Assembly (NCBI GenBank): GCA_965113315.1
Contig: OZ220372.1
Direction: 5' to 3' (one strand)
Origin: Podarcis vaucheri
Lineage: Eukaryota
DNA: 64,000 bases
The notes below the pieces were generated by a model. It had not been told where the DNA came from. It saw nothing but the letters and a program-made list of their open reading frames with translations, and made no database searches. Of the stretch, positions 1-53,301 are shown piece by piece (the first letter of the stretch is position 1; each line of letters opens with the position of its first letter). The position numbers and the translations under genes were made by a program.

Positions 1-104
1 CTGTCAATGGAGCTGTCAAACGAAGCAAGCTGTCAATGGAGCTGTCAAACGAAGCAAGCTGTCAATGGAGCTGTCAAACGAAGCAAGCTGTCAATGGAGT
101 TGTC
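1..104. repeat. 29-bp tandem repeat immediately downstream of pol (3 full copies plus a partial; may extend off the window)
   Basis: Unit ctgtcaatggagctgtcaaacgaagcaag at 1-29, 30-58 and 59-87; degenerate copy from 88. Confidence 0.95.
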
Positions 105-3100
105 AAGCGTGGTTGTCGGCGCGTCTGAAACGTAGCTTGATGGTGTTGGTATCTGGGATGATTTCGGACGTCCAGTTGGGTGTCGCGGTGTCTGGTCCGG
201 TCTGTTGGGCCCGACTTTGGCCCCGATCGGCTGGTCCGGTCTGTTGAGCCCGACTTTGGCCCCGATCGGCTGGTCCGGTCTGTTGAGCCCGACCTTGGCC
301 CCGATCAACTGGTCCGGTCTGTTGAGCCCGATCTTGGCCCCGATCCGCTGGTCCGGTCCGTTGGTCGTCGTCGTCAATATATGAGGTCGGTAAAGCCGGT
401 GGAGTCGAAAAGGTGAAGTCCTCGCCGTTGCTTTCTTCCGTCTCCTGTGGAGGGGGTGAGGACTTGCACCTAGTGTGATGTAACCAGGAATTCTTCTCAC
501 CTACTTTCACGGCGGTTGGCGATGTCAAGAGTACTTGGTAGGGACCTTCCCACGCGGGTTGGAGTGGTTCTTTCTGGTAGACCTTGACGAGGATCCAGTC
601 GCCCGGGTGGAAGGAGTGAGCGTGGACGTCGATGGGAAGATTCTGTCCCTCGATGGCCGCGTAGTGGTGGAGACGCTGTAGCTGTGTCTGGAGCTGAATA
701 ACATAATTAGTAAGTTCTGCCTCCCCGAGCTCCAGTTCCGATAGTGGGAATAGAGTGTTGTAGACGGGAGGAGGTTTCCCGAATAAGAGTTCGAATGGGG
801 AGAGTTTCAAACGTTCGGTTGGGGCGCTGCGGATGTTATGAAGAACTAGTGGGAGTGCATTGACCCATTTTAGGCCAGTGAGCTCGCAAAGTTTGCCCAA
901 CTGTATCTTTATTTCCTGGTTCATACGTTCCACTTGGCCAGAAGATTGTGGGTGGTATGGGGTGTGGAGGTCCCATTTGATTTGGAGTGATTTGGCCACT
1001 AATTGCACCACTTCTGCAGTAAAGTGGGTCCCCCTATCGCTGTCTAGGCGACGGGGTATGCCATAGCGGGGAATAATGTCCTGTAGGAGGGCCCTGGCAA
1101 CTACGGATGCGGTGGCCTTTCTGCAAGGGAATCCCTCCACCCACGAGGAAAATTGGTCAACGATAATCAAAGCATGCTTAAAGCCTTGGCATTGGGGCAG
1201 ATCAATGAAATCAAGCTGTAAGTTCTCAAAGGGGACAAAGGTCCATGGTCTGGCTCCCGGCGGCCTCCTGGGTTGACGCTTAGGATTGAAGCGCTGGCAG
1301 GTAATGCAATTCTTTGATGCTGCTGCTGCTGCGGCAGCTATCCCGGGTGCGTACCAAGATCTAATTACATGTTCCATTAATCTCCCTTTTCCCCAATGTG
1401 TTCGCTGATGAAGAAACCTCGCTACTTTTGGAGTCCAGGCCTTTGGAAGGACGGGTCTTCCATCGGGGAGGACCCAGATACCCTGTTGTTCGGTGGCACC
1501 TATCGATTCCCACGTAGCCTTCTCATCCCCTGGGGCAGATTTGTAAATTTCTGTGAGGTCTAGGTCTGCTGGCAGTTGGAGGGCTTGGAACTCGGATTCG
1601 TTGTTAGGGGTGCGTAAGGCTGCCATCTGTGCGGCTTTGTCGGCTCGTCTGTTTCCTTTAGAAACTGAGTCCCTGCCCTTGGTATGGGCCTTGCAGTGGA
1701 CAACGGCTATAGCGGCAGGTAGGTGGATCGCTGTGAGAAGTCGCTCAACCAGGGCGGCGTGCGAGATTTGAGACCCAGCAGCGGTTAGAAAGCCTCTTTG
1801 GAGCCAAATTTGGCCAGTTGTGTGCACCAAGCCGAAACAGTATTTACTATCCGTATAAATGGTTATCCGCTTCCCTTCACCAATCTCGCAGGCACGCAGC
1901 AGCGCAATTAGCTCGGCGGCTTGGGCACTGTACTGAGAGTTAATTGGATTTGACTCTATTATTTCGAAGTCGGAGACCACCGCGTACCCGGTCTTCCTGA
2001 CCCCGTCGATCACTTTAGAGCTACCATCGGTATATAATATTAGGTCCGGGTTCTCCAGGGGAAGATGATCTAAGTCTTCACGGGGCTTTTCGGCTTGCCG
2101 GACTATAGTGGTGCAGTCATGATGCGGGGTGCCATCATCGGGAAGGGGTAGTAGGGTAGCGGGGTTTAGCGAGTTGACACGTTTAATGGTGACATTGGTT
2201 GGGGTTAGTAGGAGGGCTTCGTAGCGGTTGAGGCGGGAGTTGGAGAAATGGTGACATCCTTTTAGGGTTAGGAGGGTTGAGACTGAATGGGGAACGTGGA
2301 GGGTGATTTCGTGGCCTAGAACCGTCTCTTGGGCTTTCTCGAGGAGGACAGCGGCGGCAGCAATGGCTCTGAGGCAACTGATAGCCCCTTTGGCAGTATT
2401 GTCAAGTTGTAGACTATAATATGCTACTGGCCTCTCTTGGTCGCGGAATGGTTGGGTTAGGACCCCAGAGGCTACCCCCATTTGTTCGTGGATGAACAAG
2501 TTGAAAGGGATTCGGTAGTCGGGTAATCCTAGGGCAGGAGCAGATCTGAGTTCCCGTTTTAGTCGTTCAAAAGAGCTGTAAGCTTCATCTTCCCAGACTA
2601 AGGTGTCTGGGTGGTCCTGGCGGGTCATGGCAGTTAAGGGCTTCGTTATTTCACTGTAACCAGCGATCCATGCCCGGCAGAAGCCGGCCATGCCAAGGAA
2701 GCCGCGGAGCTGTCGCTTTGTTCTTGGGAGGGGAATTTTAGTGACTGCCTCAATCCTGTCAGTGGCTAGACTTCTGGTCCCTACTCCCAAGATGTGTCCG
2801 AGATACTTGACTTCTTGCTTACAATATTGGAGTTTCTTAGGAGACACTTTATGTCCCTTCTTTGCTAATTCTGATAGGAGGCATTTAGTATCTATCTTAC
2901 ACGCCTCCTCACTGGTAGAGCATAATAAAATATCGTCCACGTAGAGAAGCAGGGTGGAACTGGCCGGTAGGTGGATGTCCTCTAAGTCCTGATGTAACAC
3001 GGCCGAAAAAATGGCGGGTGACTCTACATAGCCTTGGGGCAGTCTGGTCCACGTTAATTGGCTGGGCCCCCAGGTAAATGCAAAAAGGAATTGGCTGGCT

Positions 3101-3981
3101 GGATCTAGGGGTATGCTGAAGAAGGCAGAACACAGGTCCGCAGCGGAGTACCAAGTCGTCCCTGCTGGAATGGCGTTTAGGAGGGAGTTCGGGTTGCCAA
3201 CTACCGGGTGTCGGGGGATCACGAATTGGTTCACTAATCTCAAGTCCTGCACAAAACGGTACCGTATAGGTGCCCCCTCCTTAGCGGGTTTCTTGACCGG
3301 GAGAACTGGGGTATTACAGGGTGAAGCGCATGGGACTAGAATCCCCTTTTCGAGGAAGTCCTCAATCATGGGTGTTAGGCCTTCTATGGCTTCTTTGGGC
3401 AGAGGGTATTGCTTGGTGCATGGGAAGGGTAGGTCGCTTCGGTAAGTGATCTTGACCGGAGTGGCGGAGAGTAAGAGTCCTACTGAGGTTGATTCAGTCC
3501 CCCATAGGGAGGTGGGCAAGTCGTTTTCGAGTTCTAAAGGGAGTTCGGGAAACTGTCGGTCCGCTTTAGATTCCTGAACGATACCCTGAAAAATGGGAAT
3601 GGAGTTCCCTGGCATATGTAGGTAAATGCCATCCGGGGAGCATTTTATGGTGGCATTAAGTTTGCAGAGGAGGTCTCTGCCGAGGAGGTTGACCGGGCTG
3701 CTTGTTAAGAGGAAAGTGTGTTCCGCTAGTAATGGTCCGAGGGTGACCTTGGCCGGTCGAGAGAGCGGGCAAGTGCGGGGTATCCCATCCAGTCCCATTA
3801 CTTTCTTGGTTACTGTTCCTGGTTCCAGGTGACTGTCGGTTAGGGTGGAATAGGTGGCCCCTGTGTCTAGTAGACATTGGTAAGGGTGGCCGTCTATCTC
3901 GATAGTACAGACCGGGTCTTCGGGTGACAATGTAAGGACAGGGCAGATGGTTTGGGTCTGACTGGGATCCCCTTCTAATTG
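103..3981 (-). CDS. pol: Retroviral Pro-Pol (protease, RT, RNase H, integrase), expressed in frame with gag
   Basis: Protease LLDTGA; RT QDLR, LPQG, YVDD; RNase H YTDGS, AELIAL, YTDS; integrase H-x3-H...C-x2-C, D,D(35)E (QLDF, DSDRG, VERMN) and WEGPY. The frame is open from the codon after the gag stop (QLEGDPSQTQTICPVLTLSPED...) to TGA at 103-105. Confidence 0.97.
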   Translation of the reverse strand, partial: QLEGDPSQTQTICPVLTLSPEDPVCTIEIDGHPYQCLLDTGATYSTLTDSHLEPGTVTKKVMGLDGIPRTCPLSRPAKVTLGPLLAEHTFLLTSSPVNLLGRDLLCKLNATIKCSPDGIYLHMPGNSIPIFQGIVQESKADRQFPELPLELENDLPTSLWGTESTSVGLLLSATPVKITYRSDLPFPCTKQYPLPKEAIEGLTPMIEDFLEKGILVPCASPCNTPVLPVKKPAKEGAPIRYRFVQDLRLVNQFVIPRHPVVGNPNSLLNAIPAGTTWYSAADLCSAFFSIPLDPASQFLFAFTWGPSQLTWTRLPQGYVESPAIFSAVLHQDLEDIHLPASSTLLLYVDDILLCSTSEEACKIDTKCLLSELAKKGHKVSPKKLQYCKQEVKYLGHILGVGTRSLATDRIEAVTKIPLPRTKRQLRGFLGMAGFCRAWIAGYSEITKPLTAMTRQDHPDTLVWEDEAYSSFERLKRELRSAPALGLPDYRIPFNLFIHEQMGVASGVLTQPFRDQERPVAYYSLQLDNTAKGAISCLRAIAAAAVLLEKAQETVLGHEITLHVPHSVSTLLTLKGCHHFSNSRLNRYEALLLTPTNVTIKRVNSLNPATLLPLPDDGTPHHDCTTIVRQAEKPREDLDHLPLENPDLILYTDGSSKVIDGVRKTGYAVVSDFEIIESNPINSQYSAQAAELIALLRACEIGEGKRITIYTDSKYCFGLVHTTGQIWLQRGFLTAAGSQISHAALVERLLTAIHLPAAIAVVHCKAHTKGRDSVSKGNRRADKAAQMAALRTPNNESEFQALQLPADLDLTEIYKSAPGDEKATWESIGATEQQGIWVLPDGRPVLPKAWTPKVARFLHQRTHWGKGRLMEHVIRSWYAPGIAAAAAAASKNCITCQRFNPKRQPRRPPGARPWTFVPFENLQLDFIDLPQCQGFKHALIIVDQFSSWVEGFPCRKATASVVARALLQDIIPRYGIPRRLDSDRGTHFTAEVVQLVAKSLQIKWDLHTPYHPQSSGQVERMNQEIKIQLGKLCELTGLKWVNALPLVLHNIRSAPTERLKLSPFELLFGKPPPVYNTLFPLSELELGEAELTNYVIQLQTQLQRLHHYAAIEGQNLPIDVHAHSFHPGDWILVKVYQKEPLQPAWEGPYQVLLTSPTAVKVGEKNSWLHHTRCKSSPPPQETEESNGEDFTFSTPPALPTSYIDDDDQRTGPADRGQDRAQQTGPVDRGQGRAQQTGPADRGQSRAQQTGPADRGQSRAQQTGPDTATPNWTSEIIPDTNTIKLRFRRADNHA
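192..358 (-). repeat. 39-bp coding tandem repeat (about 4.3 copies) in the integrase C-terminal tail
   Basis: Plus-strand units start at 192, 231, 270, 309 and 348 (partial); they encode QTGPADRGQSRAQ-like 13-mers in the pol frame. Confidence 0.95.
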
Positions 3982-3984
3982 TCA
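3976..3984 (-). promoter_or_regulatory. gag-pol stop-codon readthrough site TGA-CAA-TTA
   Basis: Minus strand reads ...ACT TAT TGA CAA TTA GAA GGG...; gag and pol share a frame and are separated only by this TGA. Confidence 0.8.
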
Positions 3985-5997
3985 ATAAGTGTCCTGATCA
4001 TCGGGAGGTGGTTGGTTTGGAGGGTGCAAGGGAGGAGCAGTAGCATTCGCCCAAGGGTGGGCAGGCTGGTCTATGGCTGGCAGTTGGGTGGCCGGCATTT
4101 GGGTCCGGGGTCCCGGTTGTGGTCGGGACTGAGGGATCGGGTTCGAGACCGCCGGTGGGGTATAAGCCGCTGGGTTGTGGTTGCTGTAGCCTGGAGTTAC
4201 GTTGGCTTGCGGGGAGAAAGGGGGGTGGGTGATCCGTACAGGGAAAGGCTTAGGCTCCTGTCCCCCGTAGAGTGTCGCATTTAGGTAGGGGCAGAATCTC
4301 TTTATGTGTCCCTCTTCCTGGCAGTAATAGCATCCTCCAGTCCCCGGTCCCCATTGTCTATAGGGATTTGGGGTTCCTCCTCCACGGATTCCCTTTCCTC
4401 GAGGGAATCCCCTGCCTCGATTAGGACCATAGGCAGTTTCCATGCTTAAGGCTAGTATTTGTTCGACCTCGGGCTTCGTTTCCTTCTTCTTTCTTTCATC
4501 CCGAGAGTTGTAGACAGATTTTGCGATGGACAAGATTTCACTTACGCTCTTTCCATCGTATCCAATTTGGAGATTCAGAGCTTTCCTGATATCTGGGCAA
4601 GCCTGATCCTTGAAGAACCCTTTAATGATGACTTCATGCTGTGGGTTGTTGGGGTCTATTCCTCCCCATGTTTTAATGGCAGAGACCAATCTAGTGTAAT
4701 AATCGGACGGGTGTTCATTTGGTCCCTGCATGACCGACTGGACTTTGGTCCAATTAACGGTGCGTTGTCCGGCGGCCTTTACACCGTCCAAGATGGCCCT
4801 TTTAAATAGGTTTAAGCACCAAATACCGTTAGTGGTATTATAGTCCCATTCTGGTTCTACTCTGAGACATTGTGCTGTGAGCGCTTGCAATCCCTGAGGC
4901 CGTCCCCTTTGGTAGTCAGGTAATTCTATGGCTTCTCCGGCTTTAGTTAAAATGTCCGCTTTCTCCGCCTCGTTGAAGAGGGCATTGAGAAGGACGTGGA
5001 CATCGGGCCAGGTGGGGTTGTGTGTGGAGAAGATTGCGCTGACCTGGCGGTGGCACTTGTCCGGGTCATCCCTCAGTGAGGGCATCTGGTTTGACCAAGT
5101 TACCAGGTCTGAGGTATAGAAGGGTTGATGCGTGTAAACCATCCGCGGGGGCCCATCAGGTTCGAGAGGAGGAATGGGCAGGGCCCTTAAGGGCATCTGG
5201 ACCGCAGTAGAACTCACGGTGGAGCTTACTTGGTCAGAAGTCCCCGGGGTCTCTTTATCGCGGCCCCGGGTCCCTTTTTCGGAGCCTTGAGGTTCCGTGG
5301 GAGCGGGTTTATTCCCGACTTGGGTAGAGTCCTCAATGGTGTTGTGGTGAGTAGAGGAGGGGATTTTAGTTTTAGCTTGTCCGGGATTTTTAACTTGTTT
5401 GGCCCCCCCCTTGTCCTTTTTTGCTTGTAGTCGTGTGACCCTCCTATTTTCGGTGTCTTGTGCCTCATCCTCCTCCCCCGTTTCCTCCCCACTACTGGAG
5501 TCGCTGTCGCTGGATGTCGGGGCTTGCGGCGGTGGTCCTTGATAGTAAAAGGGGACCAGGGTCTGTCGTACATCGTCATCTTCGTAAGGGGGGGGCATTG
5601 GCAGTCGCCCGGGATTTAATATAGGCAATTGGTAAGATGTTGTTCCCTTTGGGGCTTGGAGCATTCTCCTTACGGCCTCAAAGGTGGCCAGGTATTCTAA
5701 CTGGCGGGGTTTTTCTTCTATCAGGGCTTTCCTTAGGTGGTTCAAGCGTTCTTCATTAAACGAACCCCCCGGTGGCCACCGCAGTTCGGGTCTGGCGGAG
5801 GCAGTCCTGGCGGGCCAGGTTCCGGAGCAGAGGTCCTCTAGTTTTTCCTTAGATAACAATTTGTGGCCAGGAATCGACTTCCAACACGCGATGACAAATT
5901 GAAGAGGGGAGTCGGGATCCTTCTGGGAACGGGATGGCTTCCGGGAAGCCTTCCTCCCAGAATGAGTCCGCTCGTGTTTGGAAGCCTGGGTACCCAT
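3982..5997 (-). CDS. gag: Retroviral Gag polyprotein
   Basis: ATG at 5997 gives MGTQAS (G2/S6 myristoylation consensus); gamma-type matrix WPPGGSF; PPPY late domain; MHR-like VMQGPNEHPSDYYTRL; one CCHC knuckle CYYCQEEGHIKRFC. Confidence 0.96.
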   Translation of the reverse strand: MGTQASKHERTHSGRKASRKPSRSQKDPDSPLQFVIACWKSIPGHKLLSKEKLEDLCSGTWPARTASARPELRWPPGGSFNEERLNHLRKALIEEKPRQLEYLATFEAVRRMLQAPKGTTSYQLPILNPGRLPMPPPYEDDDVRQTLVPFYYQGPPPQAPTSSDSDSSSGEETGEEDEAQDTENRRVTRLQAKKDKGGAKQVKNPGQAKTKIPSSTHHNTIEDSTQVGNKPAPTEPQGSEKGTRGRDKETPGTSDQVSSTVSSTAVQMPLRALPIPPLEPDGPPRMVYTHQPFYTSDLVTWSNQMPSLRDDPDKCHRQVSAIFSTHNPTWPDVHVLLNALFNEAEKADILTKAGEAIELPDYQRGRPQGLQALTAQCLRVEPEWDYNTTNGIWCLNLFKRAILDGVKAAGQRTVNWTKVQSVMQGPNEHPSDYYTRLVSAIKTWGGIDPNNPQHEVIIKGFFKDQACPDIRKALNLQIGYDGKSVSEILSIAKSVYNSRDERKKKETKPEVEQILALSMETAYGPNRGRGFPRGKGIRGGGTPNPYRQWGPGTGGCYYCQEEGHIKRFCPYLNATLYGGQEPKPFPVRITHPPFSPQANVTPGYSNHNPAAYTPPAVSNPIPQSRPQPGPRTQMPATQLPAIDQPAHPWANATAPPLHPPNQPPPDDQDTY

Positions 5998-6976
5998 AGT
6001 ATATTTCACGCGTGTCTAGATAGGAAAGAGGAGAGGGGAGGGGGTCGATAAGGATTCGTGGGTCTAGGGTTATTCGACAAAGGACTAGTAAAATGAAAGG
6101 TCTTTAGTCGCTTGGCAACTTCCTAGGGAGGTTTTTAAGAGCTCTAGCTATCCGGTATTCCTTACTTCCTTTTTCCTTAACCATTCACCTGGGGTCCCTT
6201 TTCCACTCTGCCGATCCCGCCCAATTCCTCATGGGCTATTCCCTCCTGGCAACCTCCTACCTATCGTCACAACTCAGGAAAGGGGGCCCTACTGAACGCC
6301 CGCACCGTGCGGTGCCAGATCGGGTGGTCCCTGGACAGAGGTTTGGGTCGAAAATCCCCCTTGCTTTCGGAAGCGGGCTTACAGTACACGTGGTATTGTA
6401 GCCCGACCGGTGCGGCTGGGATTGGGATAGAAAGCAAGACCACTTCCTGCCCCCTAGAAAGGACGCTCGGGAAGATCGGAAAGAGAGCTCCAACCCCTTG
6501 CTTTCAACTGGGATGCCCGTTTGCGGAGAGTCGGCTATCTTTCAAGTCGGGTCTCTCCGTCTTACCTTTCGGGCTCCCAATTGGTGCGGCTGGCTGGAGG
6601 GTTTAGATAAAGAGATAGAGCTCAGAACCCCCCTTTGGGTCGAGCAGCGGTCCACGGTCTCTCTCACTGACTGGACCAAGAGAAAGGCAAGAAGGTACGA
6701 TAGAGAGGAGGGCAGAGAATTCAGTTGCCAGGAGACTTCCACCCCTTCCCACCAGTGCACTGGATTTTCCTATACTCACGCGTCTTCCCCGTCGATCCGA
6801 TCCCGGGATCGATGAATGAGCCGGCTGGATCCCTTTTGCTCCCCGGCTGAACTCCTGGGGCTTCCGATTACCGCCCGGGAGATGGCCGGAGGTCCAAAAG
6901 GGTCTTCTCGGGCAAATTGGCCCGCAGCCGGCTGAAGAATTCGGGGCCTCCGGTCAGCAACCCGGGAGAACCGCTA
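5998..6976 (-). promoter_or_regulatory. 5' leader of the gag-pol unit (probable packaging/dimerisation region with several splice sites)
   Basis: Lies between PBS and gag ATG. Donor-like C|GTGAGT (intron starts 6779) and AAG|GTAAGA (6565); pyrimidine tract plus AG acceptors at 6671-6672, 6416-6417 and 6016-6017; 14-nt palindrome at 6798-6811. Confidence 0.7.
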
Positions 6977-6994
6977 GCCCCACGTTGGGCGCCA
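6977..6994 (-). promoter_or_regulatory. Primer binding site complementary to tRNA-Lys1,2
   Basis: Minus strand TGGCGCCCAACGTGGGGC (18 nt), 3 nt after the LTR terminal CA. Confidence 0.93.
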
Positions 6995-6997
6995 AGC

Positions 6998-8124
6998 TGT
7001 TACGGAAAATCTGGGTGCGTATCTACCCTGCCACCCAGCCAATCGGACCAAGTCCGTGGATTCTAGCGGAAGAAAAGGAAGCTCAGCCGGACGCAGGAGC
7101 AAAATGCGAAGATCCAAGTTTATTGCGCAACAGGTTCAAGACGAGATTGAACCCCGAGAATGGGGCGACATAAACTTTTAAAAGTTCCCACCAAGTCCCA
7201 TAACACAGTGCGAGAAACGTCATGAATACATTATGGGAAGGTTGGATTTCATGGGTTACATCATGAATACATTACACACGTCATGAATATGTCAGAGAAA
7301 AGGTGGGGTTAGACTAATTTACATTTGAGGAAAGGGAGGGGGAATATGCAGAGCGAGGGTCATACACAAATATACATTTCATGAGTACCGGTGGCGGTGA
7401 GACAATGGGTTACTGATATGCACTGTCTGCCACCTGGTATTGCCCGGGGGACGGGCTGGGCAGAGCGATCCGACAGGATTAAGGAGTTCCTGTGTACGTG
7501 ACTTGCCGTCTCGAGGATTATGGAGTCGGCCAACATCATGGAGTCCTGGGGAAACTGAGTCGAATGACACCAAGAGCAAGAAAATTGGAGCTGCGGTTGA
7601 TTTTATATGAATTTTTGAAAGGTTCTGATGACTTTCAGTCCGTTCCGTAGCCTAGATCAAAAGCGGAAGCAGAATGTATCCATTCTTGCAGAAATGGATA
7701 CATTGTAACAAGGGTTTGACAGTTTTACGAGGTCGGGAGTTTCGGTTCTATTGTTCTCGCCATGGGGGGCCGTCAGCAGCTCGTCAGGAGGTTAAATGAG
7801 GCGTGCAAGAGCTCCCTGAGCTAGCTCCTGCAGGACGAATGCATGGCTGTGATTGGCCAAAGCGCGGCCATAGGAATAAGCGGAGAAGGGAAACACTCGG
7901 TCTACTCATTCTAAGTATGGAGCGCAGATAGGCATAGGAAAGGATAGGGAATATATATATACTCGAGCTTATTTCGCTCGGGAAAAGGTCTGGGAAACAT
8001 GTGGTGCTTGTGCAACGGTGAAGGGGGTTCGAGGGTGGGTGTGCGGTGGTACCCTTGAGGTCATCGCCTCGGACCGCCAAAAGGAAGGGAGGAAATAGGC
8101 ACCCCCCCCCCTCAGTCCGTATCA
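6998..8124 (-). repeat. Internal LTR (1127 bp): 3' LTR of the env unit and 5' LTR of the gag-pol unit
   Basis: Ends TGATACGG...CCGTAACA (imperfect inverted repeats); preceded by a purine tract and followed by a PBS; AATAAA at 7119-7124; TATA-like TTTTAAAA near 7177-7184. Confidence 0.96.
7119..7124 (-). terminator. LTR polyadenylation signal AATAAA (copy in the other LTR at 10761-10766)
   Basis: tttatt on the plus strand, about 120 nt from the LTR 3' end. Confidence 0.8.
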
Positions 8125-8135
8125 CTCCCCCATTC
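8125..8135 (-). promoter_or_regulatory. Polypurine tract of the env unit
   Basis: GAATGGGGGAG directly abuts the TG of the internal LTR; there is no such tract before the outer LTR. Confidence 0.75.
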
Positions 8136-8199
8136 GGAGTTAGATTTGCATTAAAGTTCTGTAAGAACTTGCAAATCCTTTCTCCGCACCATTTGAGCA

Positions 8200-10055
8200 C
8201 TAAATTTCGGTGATCTCATATTCACCTTCTCCCAAATGTTTCATCTGTACATAGTCTGGGAAAGTGGGAGCATGTCGGGAGCGGGAATAGGCTCGAAGAG
8301 GAAAGGAGCTAGCAGAAGCAGAATGACGGAGGAGAGAGCAGCAAGGGGTAATGCAATGCATAGTACAACATAGGATAGAGACACAGAGGAAAACAGTTAA
8401 AATGATGAACAACACGACTTTCAATAGTTGTCTGAGCCATCCCAGCTTGGGCAACCATCCCCATAAGTCTACGTCGGATAGCCCCTCATGCTGGATGTCG
8501 TGGAGTTTCCCTGCTAGTTCATGAATGTTATTTAAATGTCCAGTTATATTTAAGGTCTGGTCAGTCACGTATGTACAGCACTCTGTGCCTATTAATGCAC
8601 AGGTACCTCCTTGACTGGACAAGAGGAAGTCTGTCGCGATCCTCGTCTGTAGGCTCAATTGTCTTACCTCGGATAGTTCCGACATTAGAGAGTCTGTGAT
8701 CTGAGTCGCCTCCTGCATGAACTTAAGGAGGATGTCGGTGAGTCGGAGAATATCCACGTGGTTTGAACCGGCACCGTAGGCGGGGAAGAGTGCTCGGCCT
8801 ACGGTCTCTCCATTTGCAGCAACGTCTGACAGGTCTGACAGCTCCTTTTGCTCCCTTTTGTTCCGTTGTCTTCCGGGCGGTAGGTGTGGTAATATTCTAA
8901 TTCCGGGAACGATGTAGCCGATGAAGCAGGATCCGGACATGTGTGGGCTCACCCATGTATAGGCGCGGTGCCCACACACCCAGAATAGGCCGCTGAGGTA
9001 AGATTCCATTCGGCCTGAAGCAAAGGTTTGTAGTAGCTTGGTGTCTGCGGGTTGTGGCTTCCAGTCCAAGGGATGTCCAACCGCAGTGGCCCAGGCAACA
9101 GTAAGATTAGGAAAAGTTCGGGAGTCCCTTGTGTTAGAGACAGTGACCAGTCCAGTTGGTAGGATTTCCAGAGTGTTGGTGCATGTACTGGATCCGATGA
9201 AGGTTCCTTCCCCTGAGAAGCTGCGGCAAAGGGGTCCCTTCGTAGGGCCGGTGAGGTAGAGGTATTGATGTGTTAAGTTGAGTGCGGTCAGGTTCCAGGA
9301 GGTAACATTTCCGGAACGGAACTGTTCTAGGGTCACTGGTACAGGGACCAGTGGGAGGCTCTGTTGGAGATGGCTGGGTGCGTGAGCGCAAATCCAGCAG
9401 TCCGGGTAGGGTGACTCCTTCGCCACCTGGCTGAGAAGCTTAATATAGGAGTTTTGCTCCCAGGATGACAGGAGGTCTTCTCCCGGGAGTGCCGGGTCGG
9501 TGCCGAATTGTCGGGGTGCTGTGCCAACCGGATGGAGGGGGTCGGTGGTGTTCAGTAGTCGCCTATCCCTGGCGATACCGCCGCATCGCAGGGGTCCGAC
9601 GTGGTCCCATGAGGGGGAGCGCGAGGGGTGTAAAGAATGGTGCCACCCTTCGAGATATTCAGCCCCTCTCCACTCATGAGTGACCCCTAAGTCCCATAGG
9701 CAGCAGAACCGTCGTAGGCAGAGTCCTTGGAGTTGGGGCTTCCGGGTTTCTGGGGTGGAGCGGAGGCACTGGAAGCCGAAAATCAAGTTTCCAGAGGGGT
9801 GGCTTGATTCCGTATAAGCGTGAGTAGCCCCTCCTGTCTCGACTTCGGTCCAGTTTGGGGTTTGCGAGACCTCCCCGTTCTCGTAAAGAAGGTAAGTCCC
9901 ATTTCTGCAGGTCAGCCGGTAAGAGGAGTGGTCAAGAGTGAGAGTCGCAGAGCCGATACGATGTAAATCCTTGTTTCGAATGAAAAGTTCCCAATATTCG
10001 TTTTCGGCGAGTTGGGGAACTAGGGAATGGCGCAGCAAGGTCCGGGACTCGGGAA
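8200..10055 (-). CDS. env: Gamma-type envelope glycoprotein (SU+TM); frame open but no initiating ATG or signal peptide visible
   Basis: CWIC (CxxC) at 9388-9399; furin site RNKR at 8854-8865; ISD-like LQTRIATDFLLSSQGGTC; CX6CC (CALIGTECC); hydrophobic TM VVLFIILTVFLCVSIL; many NxT/S sites. The ORF-track start at 10038 is TTG. Confidence 0.92.
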
Positions 10056-10618
10056 GGCTGGGATTGGGATAGAAAGCAAGACCACTTCCTGCCCCCTAGA
10101 AAGGACGCTCGGGAAGATCGGAAAGAGAGCTCCAACCCCTTGCTTTCAACTGGGATGCCCGTTTGCGGAGAGTCGGCTATCTTTCAAGTCGGGTCTCTCC
10201 GTCTTACCTTTCGGGCTCCCAATTGGTGCGGCTGGCTGGAGGGTTTAGATAAAGAGATAGAGCTCAGAACCCCCCTTTGGGTCGAGCAGCGGTCCACGGT
10301 CTCTCTCACTGACTGGACCAAGAGAAAGGCAAGAAGGTACGATAGAGAGGAGGGCAGAGAATTCAGTTGCCAGGAGACTTCCACCCCTTCCCACCAGTGC
10401 ACTGGATTTTCCTATACTCACGCGTCTTCCCCGTCGATCCGATCCCGGGATCGATGAATGAGCCGGCTGGATCCCTTTTGCTCCCCGGCTGAACTCCTGG
10501 GGCTTCCGATTACCGCCCGGGAGATGGCCGGAGGTCCAAAAGGGTCTTCTCGGGCAAATTGGCCCGCAGCCGGCTGAAGAATTCGGGGCCTCCGGTCAGC
10601 AACCCGGGAGAACCGCTA
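10056..10618 (-). promoter_or_regulatory. Leader of the env unit; copy of the first ~560 nt of the gag-unit leader (6414-6976)
   Basis: Same sequence at an offset of 3642 (matching ORF-track peptides); identity ends at 10056/6414. Confidence 0.9.
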
Positions 10619-10636
10619 GCCCCACGTTGGGCGCCA
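10619..10636 (-). promoter_or_regulatory. Second primer binding site, tRNA-Lys1,2
   Basis: TGGCGCCCAACGTGGGGC, 3 nt after the CA end of the outer LTR. Confidence 0.93.
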
Positions 10637-10639
10637 AGC

Positions 10640-11765
10640 TGTTACGGAAAATCTGGGTGCGTATCTACCCTGCCACCCAGCCAATCGGACCAAGTCCGTG
10701 GATTCTAGCGGAAGAAAAGGAAGCTCAGCCGGACGCAGGAGCAAAATGCGAAGATCCAAGTTTATTGCGCAACAGGTTCAAGACGAGATTGAACCCCGAG
10801 AATGGGGCGACATAAACTTTTAAAAGTTCCCACCAAGTCCCATAACACAGTGCGAGAAACGTCATGAATACATTATGGGAAGGTTGGATTTCATGGGTTA
10901 CATCATGAATACATTACACACGTCATGAATATGTCAGAGAAAAGGTGGGGTTAGACTAATTTACATTTGAGGAAAGGGAGGGGGAATATGCAGAGCGAGG
11001 GTCATACACAAATATACATTTCATGAGTACCGGTGGCGGTGAGACAATGGGTTACTGATATGCACTGTCTGCCACCTGGTATTGCCCGGGGGACGGGCTG
11101 GGCAGAGCGATCCGACAGGATTAAGGAGTTCCTGTGTACGTGACTTGCCGTCTCGAGGATTATGGAGTCGGCCAACATCATGGAGTCCTGGGGAAACTGA
11201 GTCGAATGACACCAAGAGCAAGAAAATTGGAGCTGCGGTTGATTTTATATGAATTTTTGAAAGGTTCTGATGACTTTCAGTCCGTTCCGTAGCCTAGATC
11301 AAAAGCGGAAGCAGAATGTATCCATTCTTGCAGAAATGGATACATTGTAACAAGGGTTTGACAGTTTTACGAGGTCGGGAGTTTCGGTTCTATTGTTCTC
11401 GCCATGGGGGGCCGTCAGCAGCTCGTCAGGAGGTTAAATGAGGCGTGCAAGAGCTCCCTGAGCTAGCTCCTGCAGGACGAATGCATGGCTGTGATTGGCC
11501 AAAGCGCGGCCATAGGAATAAGCGGAGAAGGGAAACACTCGGTCTACTCATTCTAAGTATGGAGCGCAGATAGGCATAGGAAAGGATAGGGAATATATAT
11601 ATACTCGAGCTTATTTCGCTCGGGAAAAGGTCTGGGAAACATGTGGTGCTTGTGCAACGGTGAAGGGGGTTCGAGGGTGGGTGTGCGGTGGTACCCTTGA
11701 GGTCATCGCCTCGGACCGCCAAAAGGAAGGGAGGAAATAGGCACCCCCCCCCTCAGTCCGTATCA
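10640..11765 (-). repeat. Outer 5' LTR (1126 bp)
   Basis: Matches 6998-8124; the only difference seen by eye is a C-run of 9 versus 10. Host AT-rich sequence (gtatatt...) starts at 11766. Confidence 0.96.
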
Positions 11766-14700
11766 GTATATTAATTCCAAAACACAAATATCATTACTAT
11801 TAATAACTCAGAAATCAATTCTAACTGGCACATTCTCAGATTGCAATCTAAACAATTACCCTGGTATTTACCTATGACGTTAGATAGCATTGTTTTCCAG
11901 AGGATAACAGTGAGATAACTAGGGACTGGTATACAGTGGAGCAAATGATAATCTCAGAGGTACAGTATGACTGTGGTCACATAACAGGTGACTGCTATCA
12001 TCATGCAAAACCTGTTTTCCAGAAGGAAGTGAGATAATCTATCTTCCAGTTGCAGAGGCAGCCAGGGCTGCAGGATATGTTATGCTACCACAAATGGATC
12101 TTGCATTTGTGACTGGAGATTGCAGAGGTGTATTTTTATATATATGCTTTGCTCAAAACAAATTGCCCAATCAGCCTGTCAAGGCTGCTTTACATACCTA
12201 CCAATGGAAAAACAAGCTGCAGAATTCTGTTGACTCTTACACAGCATGCTAGGATTTAAGAGGCTACTCTCTAATTTTCATTAAGTGTATGCAATTGTTA
12301 GTATTTGTTCAAATTGTGTAATTTGTTTTGGCATTCCCATGAAAAAGACATGCTCAATTTAATTTTGGATAAAGCTTCACTTTGTATTAAAGAAAAGATA
12401 ATTTAGTTGGTAGATTAAAGATAACATGATTCACAGCAAGGGGATTTGGAAGCACATCAAAGATTTTAATTTTAAAAACCCCTGCTCCACAAAATCAGTC
12501 AAAGTCCTGTTTTCCTTTCAAGACTTATTGCAGGTGGTGTAATAAGTTAAAGATACCTGTGAAGCCTTGAAACTTTACAACATAATTCATCCAAAGTGGA
12601 AACACTGGAATTTAGATGCACTAAGTAAGGGAATGAAATTCTTCCAAGTTTTAAGGAGGTGCATTTGTGATTAAGGGATGTTTGTAGCAATTCTGTCTCA
12701 TTTGCCTCAAATGTTAAGAAAACAACAAAATGTTATATTTGCCTATTTCTATCACCATGAATTATATCTATCAATTTTTTAAAATAGTATAGTAAAAAAT
12801 GAAATTGATACTGGAGGTTTCCTGGTGGTCACCTGTCTATTTGACTGATCTAAGAATAAAGTTATTTTGAAAATCTCTCTCGTTATGTATACATTTGTGT
12901 GTGTGTGTGTGTGTGTGTGATACACACACACATATATACAGTATGCAGAACTTGAAGAGATGTTAGTTATTACAAGTGTCTCAGAGAGAGGGCCATGTAA
13001 AGAGATCAGCATATAGATAAATGCAAATATGTTTAGGGAGCAAGAGAACTTCGTCTTGCCTTGGTTGCTAACACTGGCTAAACAACATAGTATTGAACCA
13101 TTTTAGTAGAACAGAGATGAAATATACAGGAAGAACAACATTTAAACAGAAATCTAGAATGGTATGGTAATAGATTTGCTGGGAGAGGAAGGAGAAAGCA
13201 ATAGAGAGAGACCTAGAAATAATGCAGATATGAAAATAATAGAAAAGCTGCCTTACTTCCAAACCTGCTCTATTTATGCAGTTTAAGTAGAGCAATACAC
13301 TGAAGTTATTATGACGTGTCTGAGTTGTATCAAGTTTAGACATAACATCCATTTATCTTGGCACAGCCCATAATCCCTAAATTATCTATGTCTTAGCAAA
13401 CCCCTCATAGTGCTTTTTAAAATCTTTGTCCTCCTTAAAACAAGAGTCTGCCAATGAATTGCCTCCAAATACATACCACTGGAGGCAAAAGTGCTGTTCT
13501 CTGCCTCAGTCACCCAGGGGAAGGAATCCTTATGAGAAAAGGGGAGCAGAAGGCAGGGCTGTGGCTTAGCCTTGCTTAAATCACCTACCCAGCAGAGGCT
13601 AGTGCGCACTGCATGTGTGCCAACAATACACCAAAAGGCCACTAGAGCTTTTGTAGCCTCAGAGAGGACCTCTATTGTTTCTAGTAAGATTCAATAGGCA
13701 GTTGCTTCAATGCAATAATTCCATAGCCATCATCCTAACAAGCTTTCAGGAAAATCCACCAGAAACAAGCTTTCTTCAGATGCCACCATTTGAGGTATGG
13801 AGGATGACTATTTGCTGGTGGGACCACCACCTGTGGAATGTCTTCCCCAGATGAGCTTACTAGGCACCAACCTTGATGTTACTTCAGTGCCAGGAAAATG
13901 ACTTTTTATTTTATTTTCCCAGACTTTTTCATCCTCTGTAAATTGCCTTTGTTTGTTTGTTTTCATTTTGCAGATTACTTTCATATAGTGGTGTTCTAAT
14001 GCTTTTGGTTTAATCTGTTTTGTTGCAATTTTAACTTAATGTACATAAGCTGTTGCAGGGTGAGGAATTAAGTAAATAAAAGCTAGACATCCGCTTGGCA
14101 TGTGACTGTGATCTGATCCTGAGACTGCTTGCACCAATTTTGTTCCCAAAGCAGCATATTAATTTACTTGAGCTCAGAGAGGGAGAATCTGGTTTTTAGA
14201 ATAGGTGCAAAATTAGCTTGTACATAAAATTTGCAAAGCATTTTCCCACCTATTTTCAAACATGAATAATTATACTAGAAGACATCTATCACTTGGGGGT
14301 GGGGAGAGCAAAAGAATCATGAAAATGAGACAAAGGTTTATTTTTAACCAGTGTGTGGGATCACTTTCCTTTTTAAAGAATACCCTGGAGCTGTCTCAAG
14401 TCCTTATCTTCTTGGCAGCTGCTTAGAATTCTAAACCAACAACCACGCTAAGAAATCCAGACTTCAGCTGATATATGCTCCTTTTCCCAGGCTTCTTGGC
14501 CAATGGGAAGGAATTGCTCCAGCAAAAGAACTATGGATTACTCTATCATCTGTCATTTTATCAGCTTTCTATTAAAGCTACTTTCTGAAATAACACCCAA
14601 ACACAGAGTGTTTCTTCAGATTGTAAGGAAATTTATCACAGGGTCCAAGCACACAGATGAAACAAGCTACAAATATTTGTAATTGTATGGCAGGGAAGCA

Positions 14701-43460: not shown

Positions 43461-43821
43461 AGGTAAAAGGTAAAGGTACCCCTGCCCGTACGGGCCAGTC
43501 TTGCCAGACTCTAGGGTTGTGTGCTCATCTCACTCTAGAGGCCGGGAGCCAGCGCTGTCCGCAGACACTTCCGGGTCACGTGGCCAGCGTGACAAGCTGC
43601 ATCTGGCGAGCCAGCGCAGCACACAGAACGCCGTTTACCTTCCCGCTAGTAAGCGGTCCCTATTTATCTACTTGCACCTGGGGGTGCTTTCGAACTGCTA
43701 GGTTGGCAGGCGCTGGGACCGGACGACGGGAGCGCACCCAGCCGCGGAGATTCGAACCGCCGACCATGCAATTGGCAAGTCCTAGGCGCTGAGGTTTTAC
43801 CCACAGCGCCACCCGCGTCCC
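43461..43821 (-). mobile_element. Full-length Sauria SINE (Squam1-type)
   Basis: Minus strand starts GGGACGCGGGTGGCGCTGTGG and ends in an (ACCTTT)n tail; flanking duplication TTACATACACCATA at 43447-43460 and 43824-43837. Confidence 0.9.
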
Positions 43822-44090
43822 AGTTACATACACCATAGTTTGCCCAATTAAGACACTCTCTGGTTTGTGTAAACCAAAGAGTGAGGGAAGGAAGTGTGGT
43901 TCACGGAAGGAGGGAGCATGCAACCGCTGACCATGCGATTGGCAAGTCCTAGGCGCTGAGGTTTTACCCACAGCGCCACCCGCGTCCCAGTTACATACAC
44001 CATAGTTTGCCCAATTAAGACACTCTCTGGTTTGTGCAAACCAAAGAGTGAGGGAAGGAAGTGGGGTTCACGGAAGGAGGGAGCATGCAA
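43755..44090. repeat. ~167-bp tandem duplication covering the SINE 5' end and its flank
   Basis: aaccgc.gaccatgc...ggagggagcatgc occurs twice at an offset of 167 with a few substitutions. Confidence 0.88.
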
Positions 44091-45254: not shown

Positions 45255-45384
45255 AGCTTAATCATGCTGGCCACATGACCTAGAAGCTGTACGCCGGCTC
45301 CCTCAGCCAATAAAGCGAGATGGGCGCCGCAACCCCAGAGTCGGCCACGACTGGACCTAATGGTCAGGGGTCCCTTTACCTTTA
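45255..45384 (+). mobile_element. 5'-truncated Sauria SINE
   Basis: Ends ...ggggtccctttaccttta; flanking duplication CCTAAATATATG at 45243-45254 and 45385-45396. Confidence 0.85.
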
Positions 45385-46857: not shown

Positions 46858-46993
46858 CAGGCATAGGCAAACTCAGCTCTCCAGATGTTTTGGGTCTACA
46901 ACTCCCATGATCCCTAGCTAACAGGACGAGTGGCTAGGGATGATAGGAATTGTAGTCCCAAAACATCTGGAGGGCCAAGTTTGCCTATGCCTG
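46858..46993. mobile_element. hAT-type MITE
   Basis: TIRs CAGGCATAGGCAAACT...AGTTTGCCTATGCCTG; 8-bp TSD GAGTAGAG; the element is nearly palindromic throughout. Confidence 0.9.
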
Positions 46994-53220: not shown

Positions 53221-53301
53221 GGCCAATAAAGTGAGATTAGCGCTGCAACCCCAGAGTTGGCCATGACTGGACCTAGTGGTCATGGGTCCCTTTACCTTAC
53301 C
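53221..53301 (+). mobile_element. Sauria SINE 3' fragment
   Basis: Similar to 45305-45384, ending in gggtccctttaccttacc. Confidence 0.75.

Follow-up and report, generated by a model that had tools for sequence, protein, structure and literature searches.

A three-LTR retroviral insertion in Podarcis vaucheri, very probably a full provirus with an internally deleted, private copy in front

We asked whether a locus of Podarcis vaucheri (assembly GCA_965113315.1, contig OZ220372.1), at which an env-like reading frame lies upstream of gag and is separated from it by a full LTR, represents a retroviral genome divided between two elements. The window, i.e. the whole stretch of DNA that was analysed, comprises 64,000 nt (C29:11098001-11162000 in the assembly coordinates used here), and the features in question lie at its left end. 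An earlier note on this DNA had offered two explanations: a helper/satellite or bipartite system, with env and gag-pol mobilised separately, or a single deletion derivative that had become linked to a complete provirus. The minus-strand order described there (LTR, PBS, leader, env-like frame, PPT, LTR, PBS, leader, gag, pol, 29-bp array) was confirmed by the sequence and by Pfam domains, as was the presence, ahead of gag, of a unit with its own LTR, PBS, leader (584 nt), PPT and LTR, and without gag and pol. This short unit and its borders are composed as follows:

11766..11769, minus strand: target-site duplication, upstream copy, 4 bp; the same 4 bases recur directly after LTR3
10640..11765, minus strand: LTR1, 1126 nt, the outer 5' LTR of the three, identical to LTR3
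10619..10636, minus strand: PBS of the short unit, read directly; the LTR-PBS motif has 79 exact matches in the genome
10056..10639, minus strand: retained 5' leader, 584 nt, identical to 6414-6997
10056..10058, minus strand: deletion join with 3-nt microhomology; the leader matches down to 10056, env up to 10058
8200..10058, minus strand: 5'-truncated env, from family Env residue 56 to the end (Pfam TLV_coat)
8125..8199, minus strand: 3' UTR and PPT of the short unit; two substitutions, at 8140 and 8125, are private to this copy
6998..8124, minus strand: LTR2, the shared middle LTR, 1127 nt, differing from LTR1 by one base in a G run

We take the PBS to be of the tRNA-Lys1,2 type; no tRNA gene was detected in the window by ARAGORN.

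That the gag-pol unit is without env, as one of the two explanations in the earlier note would require, did not hold once the sequence left of base 1 was considered. In the neighbouring stretch L011, the overlap of which with the window is identical (L011 position 9001 is window base 1), the unit runs on into env, PPT and a third LTR, the env start being situated 272 nt left of base 1. The appearance of a split genome arises because the window edge falls in the pol-env spacer, and the gag-pol unit is an ordinary provirus:

5998..6997, minus strand: PBS and undeleted leader of the complete provirus, read from the sequence
3982..5997, minus strand: gag, an open frame closed by TGA and continued in the same frame by pol (Pfam Gag_p30, E 9.9e-34)
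103..3981, minus strand: pro-pol, 1292 codons (Pfam RVP, RVT_1, RNase_H, rve, MLVIN_C)
1..106, minus strand: 29-bp tandem array of the pol-env spacer, continuing past base 1, 9.3 copies in total (L011 8837-9106)
L011 8729-6708, outside the window, minus strand: the provirus's own env, 673 codons, ATG-initiated, with hydrophobic N-terminus
L011 6632-5507, outside the window, minus strand: LTR3 (3' LTR), preceded by the PPT; the downstream copy of the target-site duplication comes directly after it

The non-coding 29-bp array reported behind pol was found as described, and it goes on left of the window; a separate array of 39-bp repeats occupies 192-363, in the C-terminal part of pol. Judged from domains and motifs, the family belongs to the class I (gamma/epsilon-like) endogenous retroviruses: Gag carries a p30-type capsid, gag and pol form one frame split by a single TGA stop, and the integrase has an MLV-type C-terminus. 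The 673-aa Env, recognized by Pfam as TLV_coat, contains CXXC at 275, a basic site at 453 and CX6CC at 541, presumably the SU motif, the cleavage site and the TM motif of a gamma-type Env, respectively.

The whole structure measures 15,259 nt and reads LTR-leader-env'-LTR-leader-gag-pol-env-LTR, where env' denotes the truncated frame. LTRs and internal regions alternate in a single orientation, and the middle LTR is common to both units. The target-site duplication is found at the outer ends only, the middle LTR being bounded by PPT and PBS without any duplication. Because a single 4-bp duplication surrounds all three LTRs, the 15,259-nt structure can be attributed to one insertion event. In nine family copies with both ends available, the duplication was 4 bp long in four (the present insertion included) and 5 bp long in five; two additional loci were tried and could not be scored. 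LTR1 and LTR3 are fully identical, the two LTR-leader blocks are identical across about 1.7 kb apart from the one G-run base, which is far above chance, and the two units differ by two substitutions and this base over about 3.6 kb. Very probably, then, the locus goes back to a single, very young insertion of a class I endogenous retrovirus, in which a complete provirus is preceded by a private, internally deleted copy and shares the middle LTR with it.

The short unit itself was only partly what the earlier note had called an env-only element. An env-like frame is indeed present, but it is not a whole gene: codons 1-55 are missing, as part of 6,850 nt absent at the join that also include the rest of the leader, gag, pol and the spacer. 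The remaining env is identical to that of the neighbouring provirus in 1859/1859 nt, and over env and 3' UTR together (1934 nt) the substitutions at 8140 and 8125 are the sole differences between the two copies. The PPT-side variant carrying them has one exact match genome-wide, i.e. the short unit. The sister loci L002, L004 and L010 are also 100% identical to the short-unit env over 1659 nt, which means that the short unit may have been copied from a template other than its neighbour. Splicing was rejected as the origin of the join, as no GT..AG or GC..AG ends were found in any register of the 3-nt overlap.

As for coding capacity, the truncated env contains no in-frame ATG until 9009, 269 codons before its end. 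The retained leader offers no ATG as an alternative start, and the first ATG of any frame appears at 9902. A hydrophobic stretch was not found in the first 60 residues (maximum 11-residue hydropathy 0.69, versus 2.25 for the intact N-terminus). A putative, consensus-like splice donor lies near 10421 in the retained leader, whereas the env splice acceptor would, by the usual layout of class I retroviruses, be expected in the deleted spacer. As the deletion has taken away the start codon, the part resembling a signal peptide and the spacer in which the acceptor is expected, the short unit could not encode a normal Env. It appears to be a dead-end by-product rather than an env-expressing element, and it has not spread.

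We then turned to the remainder of the genome. The earlier note had envisaged independent LTR-env-LTR loci recognizable by the leader-env join; the join has one exact match in 1.6 Gb, still one when up to 2 mismatches are allowed, and no other locus was found. Likewise, a similarity search with the locus gave one full-length match among the 40 of 440 candidates that were scored. Family copies were counted by exact motifs of 20-23 nt, which miss diverged copies, so that the counts are lower bounds: 79 for LTR-PBS, 249 for PPT-LTR, 87 for the end of env and 71 for gag. Young proviruses of the family number about 90 or more, the present locus among them. A gag motif stands upstream of 67 of the 87 env ends (at normal distance in 58, short in 7, long in 2), a PBS without gag motif upstream of 8 (short unit included), and neither upstream of 12. 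The short unit is the sole env-motif match of the 87 with a PBS motif less than 4.7 kb upstream (2188 nt from PBS to env end; the next shortest distance, among env ends with a PBS but no gag motif, is 4763 nt), and also the sole env end directly followed by an LTR-PBS motif.

All 19 other env-motif matches lacking an upstream gag motif were mapped, and the join was absent from each of them. Eight are diverged or recombinant gag-pol-env copies and seven retain gag sequence behind the PBS; three (L036, L037 and L040) are truncated at the 5' end, the 15-17 kb upstream of them having yielded neither LTR nor leader, and the last (L045) is an env fragment within a diverged LTR. A whole env behind LTR and leader without gag was thus not encountered among the 20 env matches that lack the gag motif. 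Viewed from the other side, the env motif lies within 15 kb downstream in 67 of the 71 gag-motif loci and the remaining four have env on inspection, so that env sequence follows in 71/71, one of them 3'-truncated. Five PBS matches are accompanied by neither motif: a diverged copy of full layout (L059/L072), an LTR-gag-LTR element (L060), a non-coding element (L061), and two copies that end without a 3' LTR, one in gag (L058) and one after pol (L062). The latter, a diverged gag-pol copy ending in the spacer, has no env in the next ~10 kb; because its 3' LTR is missing too, it can be regarded as a truncation. No copies come closer to an env-less unit than L060 and L062, each of which is a solitary, rearranged case.

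Two further sets of candidate tandems were examined and discarded. The locus at C18:916565 (L020) consists of two separate proviruses 2.3 kb apart, without a shared LTR. In L014/15, L016/17 and L018, where PBS and PPT are 12-13 kb apart, the extra stretches gave no match to the element and do not represent second units.

These observations bear directly on the two systems that had been proposed. A bipartite retrovirus, with gag-pol and env on separate and mutually dependent elements, would agree with the gene order if one looked inside the window only, and L062 and L060, as units carrying gag-pol or gag without env, could be cited in its favour. Yet the gag-pol unit at this locus has its own env, as do the gag-motif loci throughout the genome, L062 is truncated, and no whole env unit of the required kind exists among the env matches without the gag motif; we consider this explanation so improbable as to be nearly negligible. 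A satellite lineage is a different matter, since the family does spawn derivatives mobilised in trans. These are of two kinds: i) a deletion in pol with an identical join at five of the loci inspected (L014, L022, L024, L051 and L053), and ii) a non-coding element with 124 exact motif matches, in which the leader is 88% and the PPT region 98% identical and the interior is an AT-rich filler of 4.4-5.3 kb. No ORF of 150 codons was found in 8/8 copies of the latter that were scanned, and no tblastn match to Gag, Pol or Env in 6/6 copies. The short unit might be imagined as a member of a similar, env-bearing lineage, packaged by the complete virus and rare in the sequenced individual, and it does keep LTRs, PBS, PPT and 584 nt of leader. 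However, it is present in a single copy without a target-site duplication of its own, its env has neither start codon nor hydrophobic leader, and its leader of 584 nt compares with about 900 nt in the non-coding satellite, so that the packaging signal may be partly missing. Membership in such a lineage is therefore very improbable, if less so than a bipartite system. A helper/satellite relation fits the family, not the short unit. Because the gag-pol unit has a complete env and the join is unique, the first of the two original proposals is refuted at this locus by the test that the earlier note itself had set; the same two observations support the second one, in which a single deletion derivative is attached to a complete provirus.

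It may also be asked whether the tandem exists at all, or whether the assembly strung together a deleted and a complete haplotype through the LTR or incorporated a chimeric read. The duplicated parts hardly differ and identical sister copies exist elsewhere in the genome, both of which would favour such an error. Contigs of four of 24 listed public runs were aligned to the locus, and none of the 32 contig pieces listed, of 2345, bridges the join; loose contig ends at 10056 and 10058 continue differently from it. Against an artefact, the join is new sequence with a clean 3-nt microhomology, the short unit bears two substitutions seen nowhere else in the assembly, the outer target-site duplication is intact, and the locus sits in a 76.9 Mb contig. 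Moreover, even a merger of haplotypes would imply that the deleted unit exists as a genuine, private allele. We regard an artefact as unlikely, although the tandem itself rests on one assembly. In the same alignments, the fit of the X1, X15 and X16 contigs begins at 11766, and a further 1566, 158 and 1118 letters, respectively, do not match the LTR. This continuation may be read as the empty site; three of the four samples appear to be without the insertion, which looks recent and polymorphic, and the lack of a bridge among the pieces listed is accordingly no proof either way.

How the tandem was formed can be proposed with less certainty. In one model, reverse transcriptase would have jumped between leader and env on the 3 nt of homology, giving rise to a short DNA. 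This would then have been joined to full-length DNA via the LTR, before or at integration, or would have recombined into the 5' LTR later. Alternatively, two separate chromosomal events might have taken place, an unequal LTR-LTR crossover followed by an end-joining deletion. The sequence cannot separate these routes, and we lean somewhat towards the replication-coupled one, for three reasons. The only such tandem among the 87 env matches coincides with the only leader-env deletion; the LTRs are free of substitutions, so that two separate events in the chromosome would have had little time to occur; and the two substitutions of the short unit lie beside the PPT, where a crossover inside the LTR would have left them untouched. 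These substitutions are 15 nt apart, for which the chance is about 0.008 if they were placed at random over 3.6 kb, a rough, post hoc figure computed with 14 nt. A bolder version would hold that a satellite was caught here at birth: aberrant reverse transcription, comprising a second strand transfer and the 3-nt jump, would have generated a DNA with three LTRs that entered the chromosome in one piece, and the short RNA, still packageable, could spread in the manner of the pol-deleted and non-coding derivatives of the family. We think this improbable. If true, it would provide direct evidence that shared-LTR tandems of vertebrate retroviruses can arise in replication rather than by chromosomal crossover. 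In the literature, such tandems are ascribed to unequal recombination between LTRs in passages of bioRxiv 10.64898/2026.09.22.753638 and PMC5932611. Formation during retrotransposition has also been proposed, and the plant study, in the part concerned, could not separate it from LTR recombination (PMC11899658). Internal deletions of HIV-1 are attributed to aberrant strand transfer in the relevant passages of PMC12657518, which do not mention tandems.

The structure is another instance of the known shared-LTR tandem type, its first unit being a private deletion. According to the passages on HERV-K(HML-2) in PMC11807958 and bioRxiv 10.64898/2026.09.22.753638, consecutive units at 7p22.1, 6q14.1 and 11 more loci share the intervening LTR, and two internal regions are enclosed by three LTRs, alleles of this form being documented in PMC11807958; coding content can vary between the members of an array, and unequal LTR recombination is proposed there as well. 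Compared with these, the first unit described here is devoid of 6,850 nt and reduced to leader and headless env, and the host is a lizard and the virus of class I. Tandem LTR arrays of plants and Drosophila, as presented in parts of PMC11899658 and PMC5932611, likewise show alternating LTRs and internal regions and one target-site duplication, but they consist of LTR retrotransposons, whereas an env-bearing vertebrate retrovirus is involved here. Derivatives complemented in trans are described in a section of PMC10924933 for mouse, koala and cattle (ETn by MusD, IAP I-delta-1 by IAP, recKoRV by KoRV-A, and the D-type of bovine ERVK[2-1-LTR]). The short unit resembles them in possessing the needed LTR, PBS and PPT, and the family has its two multi-copy derivatives elsewhere; unlike them, it is single-copy and without independent integration. 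Among the papers listed by our search on bipartite and env-only endogenous retroviruses, the term 'env-only' was not found.

As a private structural accident, the short unit is of little import in itself, while finding a bipartite retrovirus would have been highly surprising. The value of the locus lies rather in its setting, a recently expanding lizard retrovirus family. Its insertions are nearly identical and apparently polymorphic, recombinant lineages occur, and two of its derivatives are mobilised in trans, so that the family offers a natural system in which to study the origin of tandems and satellites. Among the papers listed by a search for endogenous retroviruses of Podarcis lizards, no title describes this family. 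Relatives were found at the protein level: over residues 150-600, Pol shares 97% identity with a UniRef entry labelled Podarcis muralis and 86% with proteins of Zootoca vivipara. These unnamed lacertid class I Gag-Pol proteins, the entries of which are automatic gene calls, belong to the same virus family.

The retrieved loci of this class I ERV family and its relatives include a derivative that lacks part of pol and a non-coding relative.

Pol-deleted derivative: L014, L022, L024, L051 and L053, recognised by a common deletion join.
Non-coding, non-autonomous relative: L025 2733-9901, with further copies at L021, L027-L033 and L061, recognised by motif matches and sequence comparison.

Among the loci retrieved, the identical join (pol 198 to 3114, with 5 nt of microhomology) was present at all five loci of the pol-deleted derivative, and in the four tested the LTR pairs were 99.9-100% identical. 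Judging from sequence, this derivative is a lineage that spreads in trans. A further locus, L023, carries a pol deletion different from the common join.

The non-coding relative has more motif matches than the ERV family itself, with 124 exact PPT-LTR motif matches genome-wide versus 87 for the env motif of the family (exact-motif counting gives a lower bound). Its PPT region is 98% identical to that of the family, its leader 88% identical over approximately 900 nt, and the 3' part of its LTR about 79% alike. The interior consists of 4.4-5.3 kb of filler with 37-38% GC and internal repeats, in which tblastn with Gag, Pol and Env detected no gag, pol or env in any of the six copies compared. 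Since the LTRs of the L061 copy are 99.6% identical and flanked by a 5-bp target-site duplication, this copy transposed recently.

Seven other loci represent recombinant lineages, all with gag-pol just 75-79% like the window copy. In L039, L042 and L043 it is fused to an env 97-98% like that of the window copy; in L047, L048, L050 and L052 the 5' LTR end is 98-99% and env 87% similar.

Three copies start abruptly within pol or env, two of them (L037 and L040) approximately 99% and one (L036) 81-89% like the window copy. No 5' LTR was found in the 15-17 kb upstream of any of the three, and no target-site duplication was seen for L037 and L040. In one diverged copy, about 770 nt of env lie within the start of an LTR, and leader and part of gag come after this LTR.

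Env piece inside LTR: L045 1419-2226, with L066, from sequence comparison.

Two arrays differ in length among ERV copies.

29-bp array in the pol-env spacer: window 1-106 and L011 (the stretch left of the window) 8837-9106.
In-frame array of 39-bp repeats in the final part of pol: window 192-363.

Across public sequencing runs compared over window 8000-12300, the depth of contigs on env relative to the flank was roughly 13-fold in X1, 115-fold in X15, 70-fold in X16 and 28-fold in X17; although depth does not equal copy number, this wide spread hints at very unequal family sizes among individuals or species. One X15 contig omits 1506 nt inside env.

Next to its PPT, the short unit carries two private substitutions, and only with both of them does window 8124-8140 form a full inverted repeat, whose 5-bp arms hold one change each and enclose a loop of 7 nt. 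The pair of changes could have arisen by chance, templated repair or sequencing error.

The host flank contains repeats that look like ordinary ones.

167-bp tandem duplication: window 43746-44090.
77-nt dispersed repeat pair: window 45306-45382 and 53222-53298.
61-nt inverted repeat: window 46858-46993.
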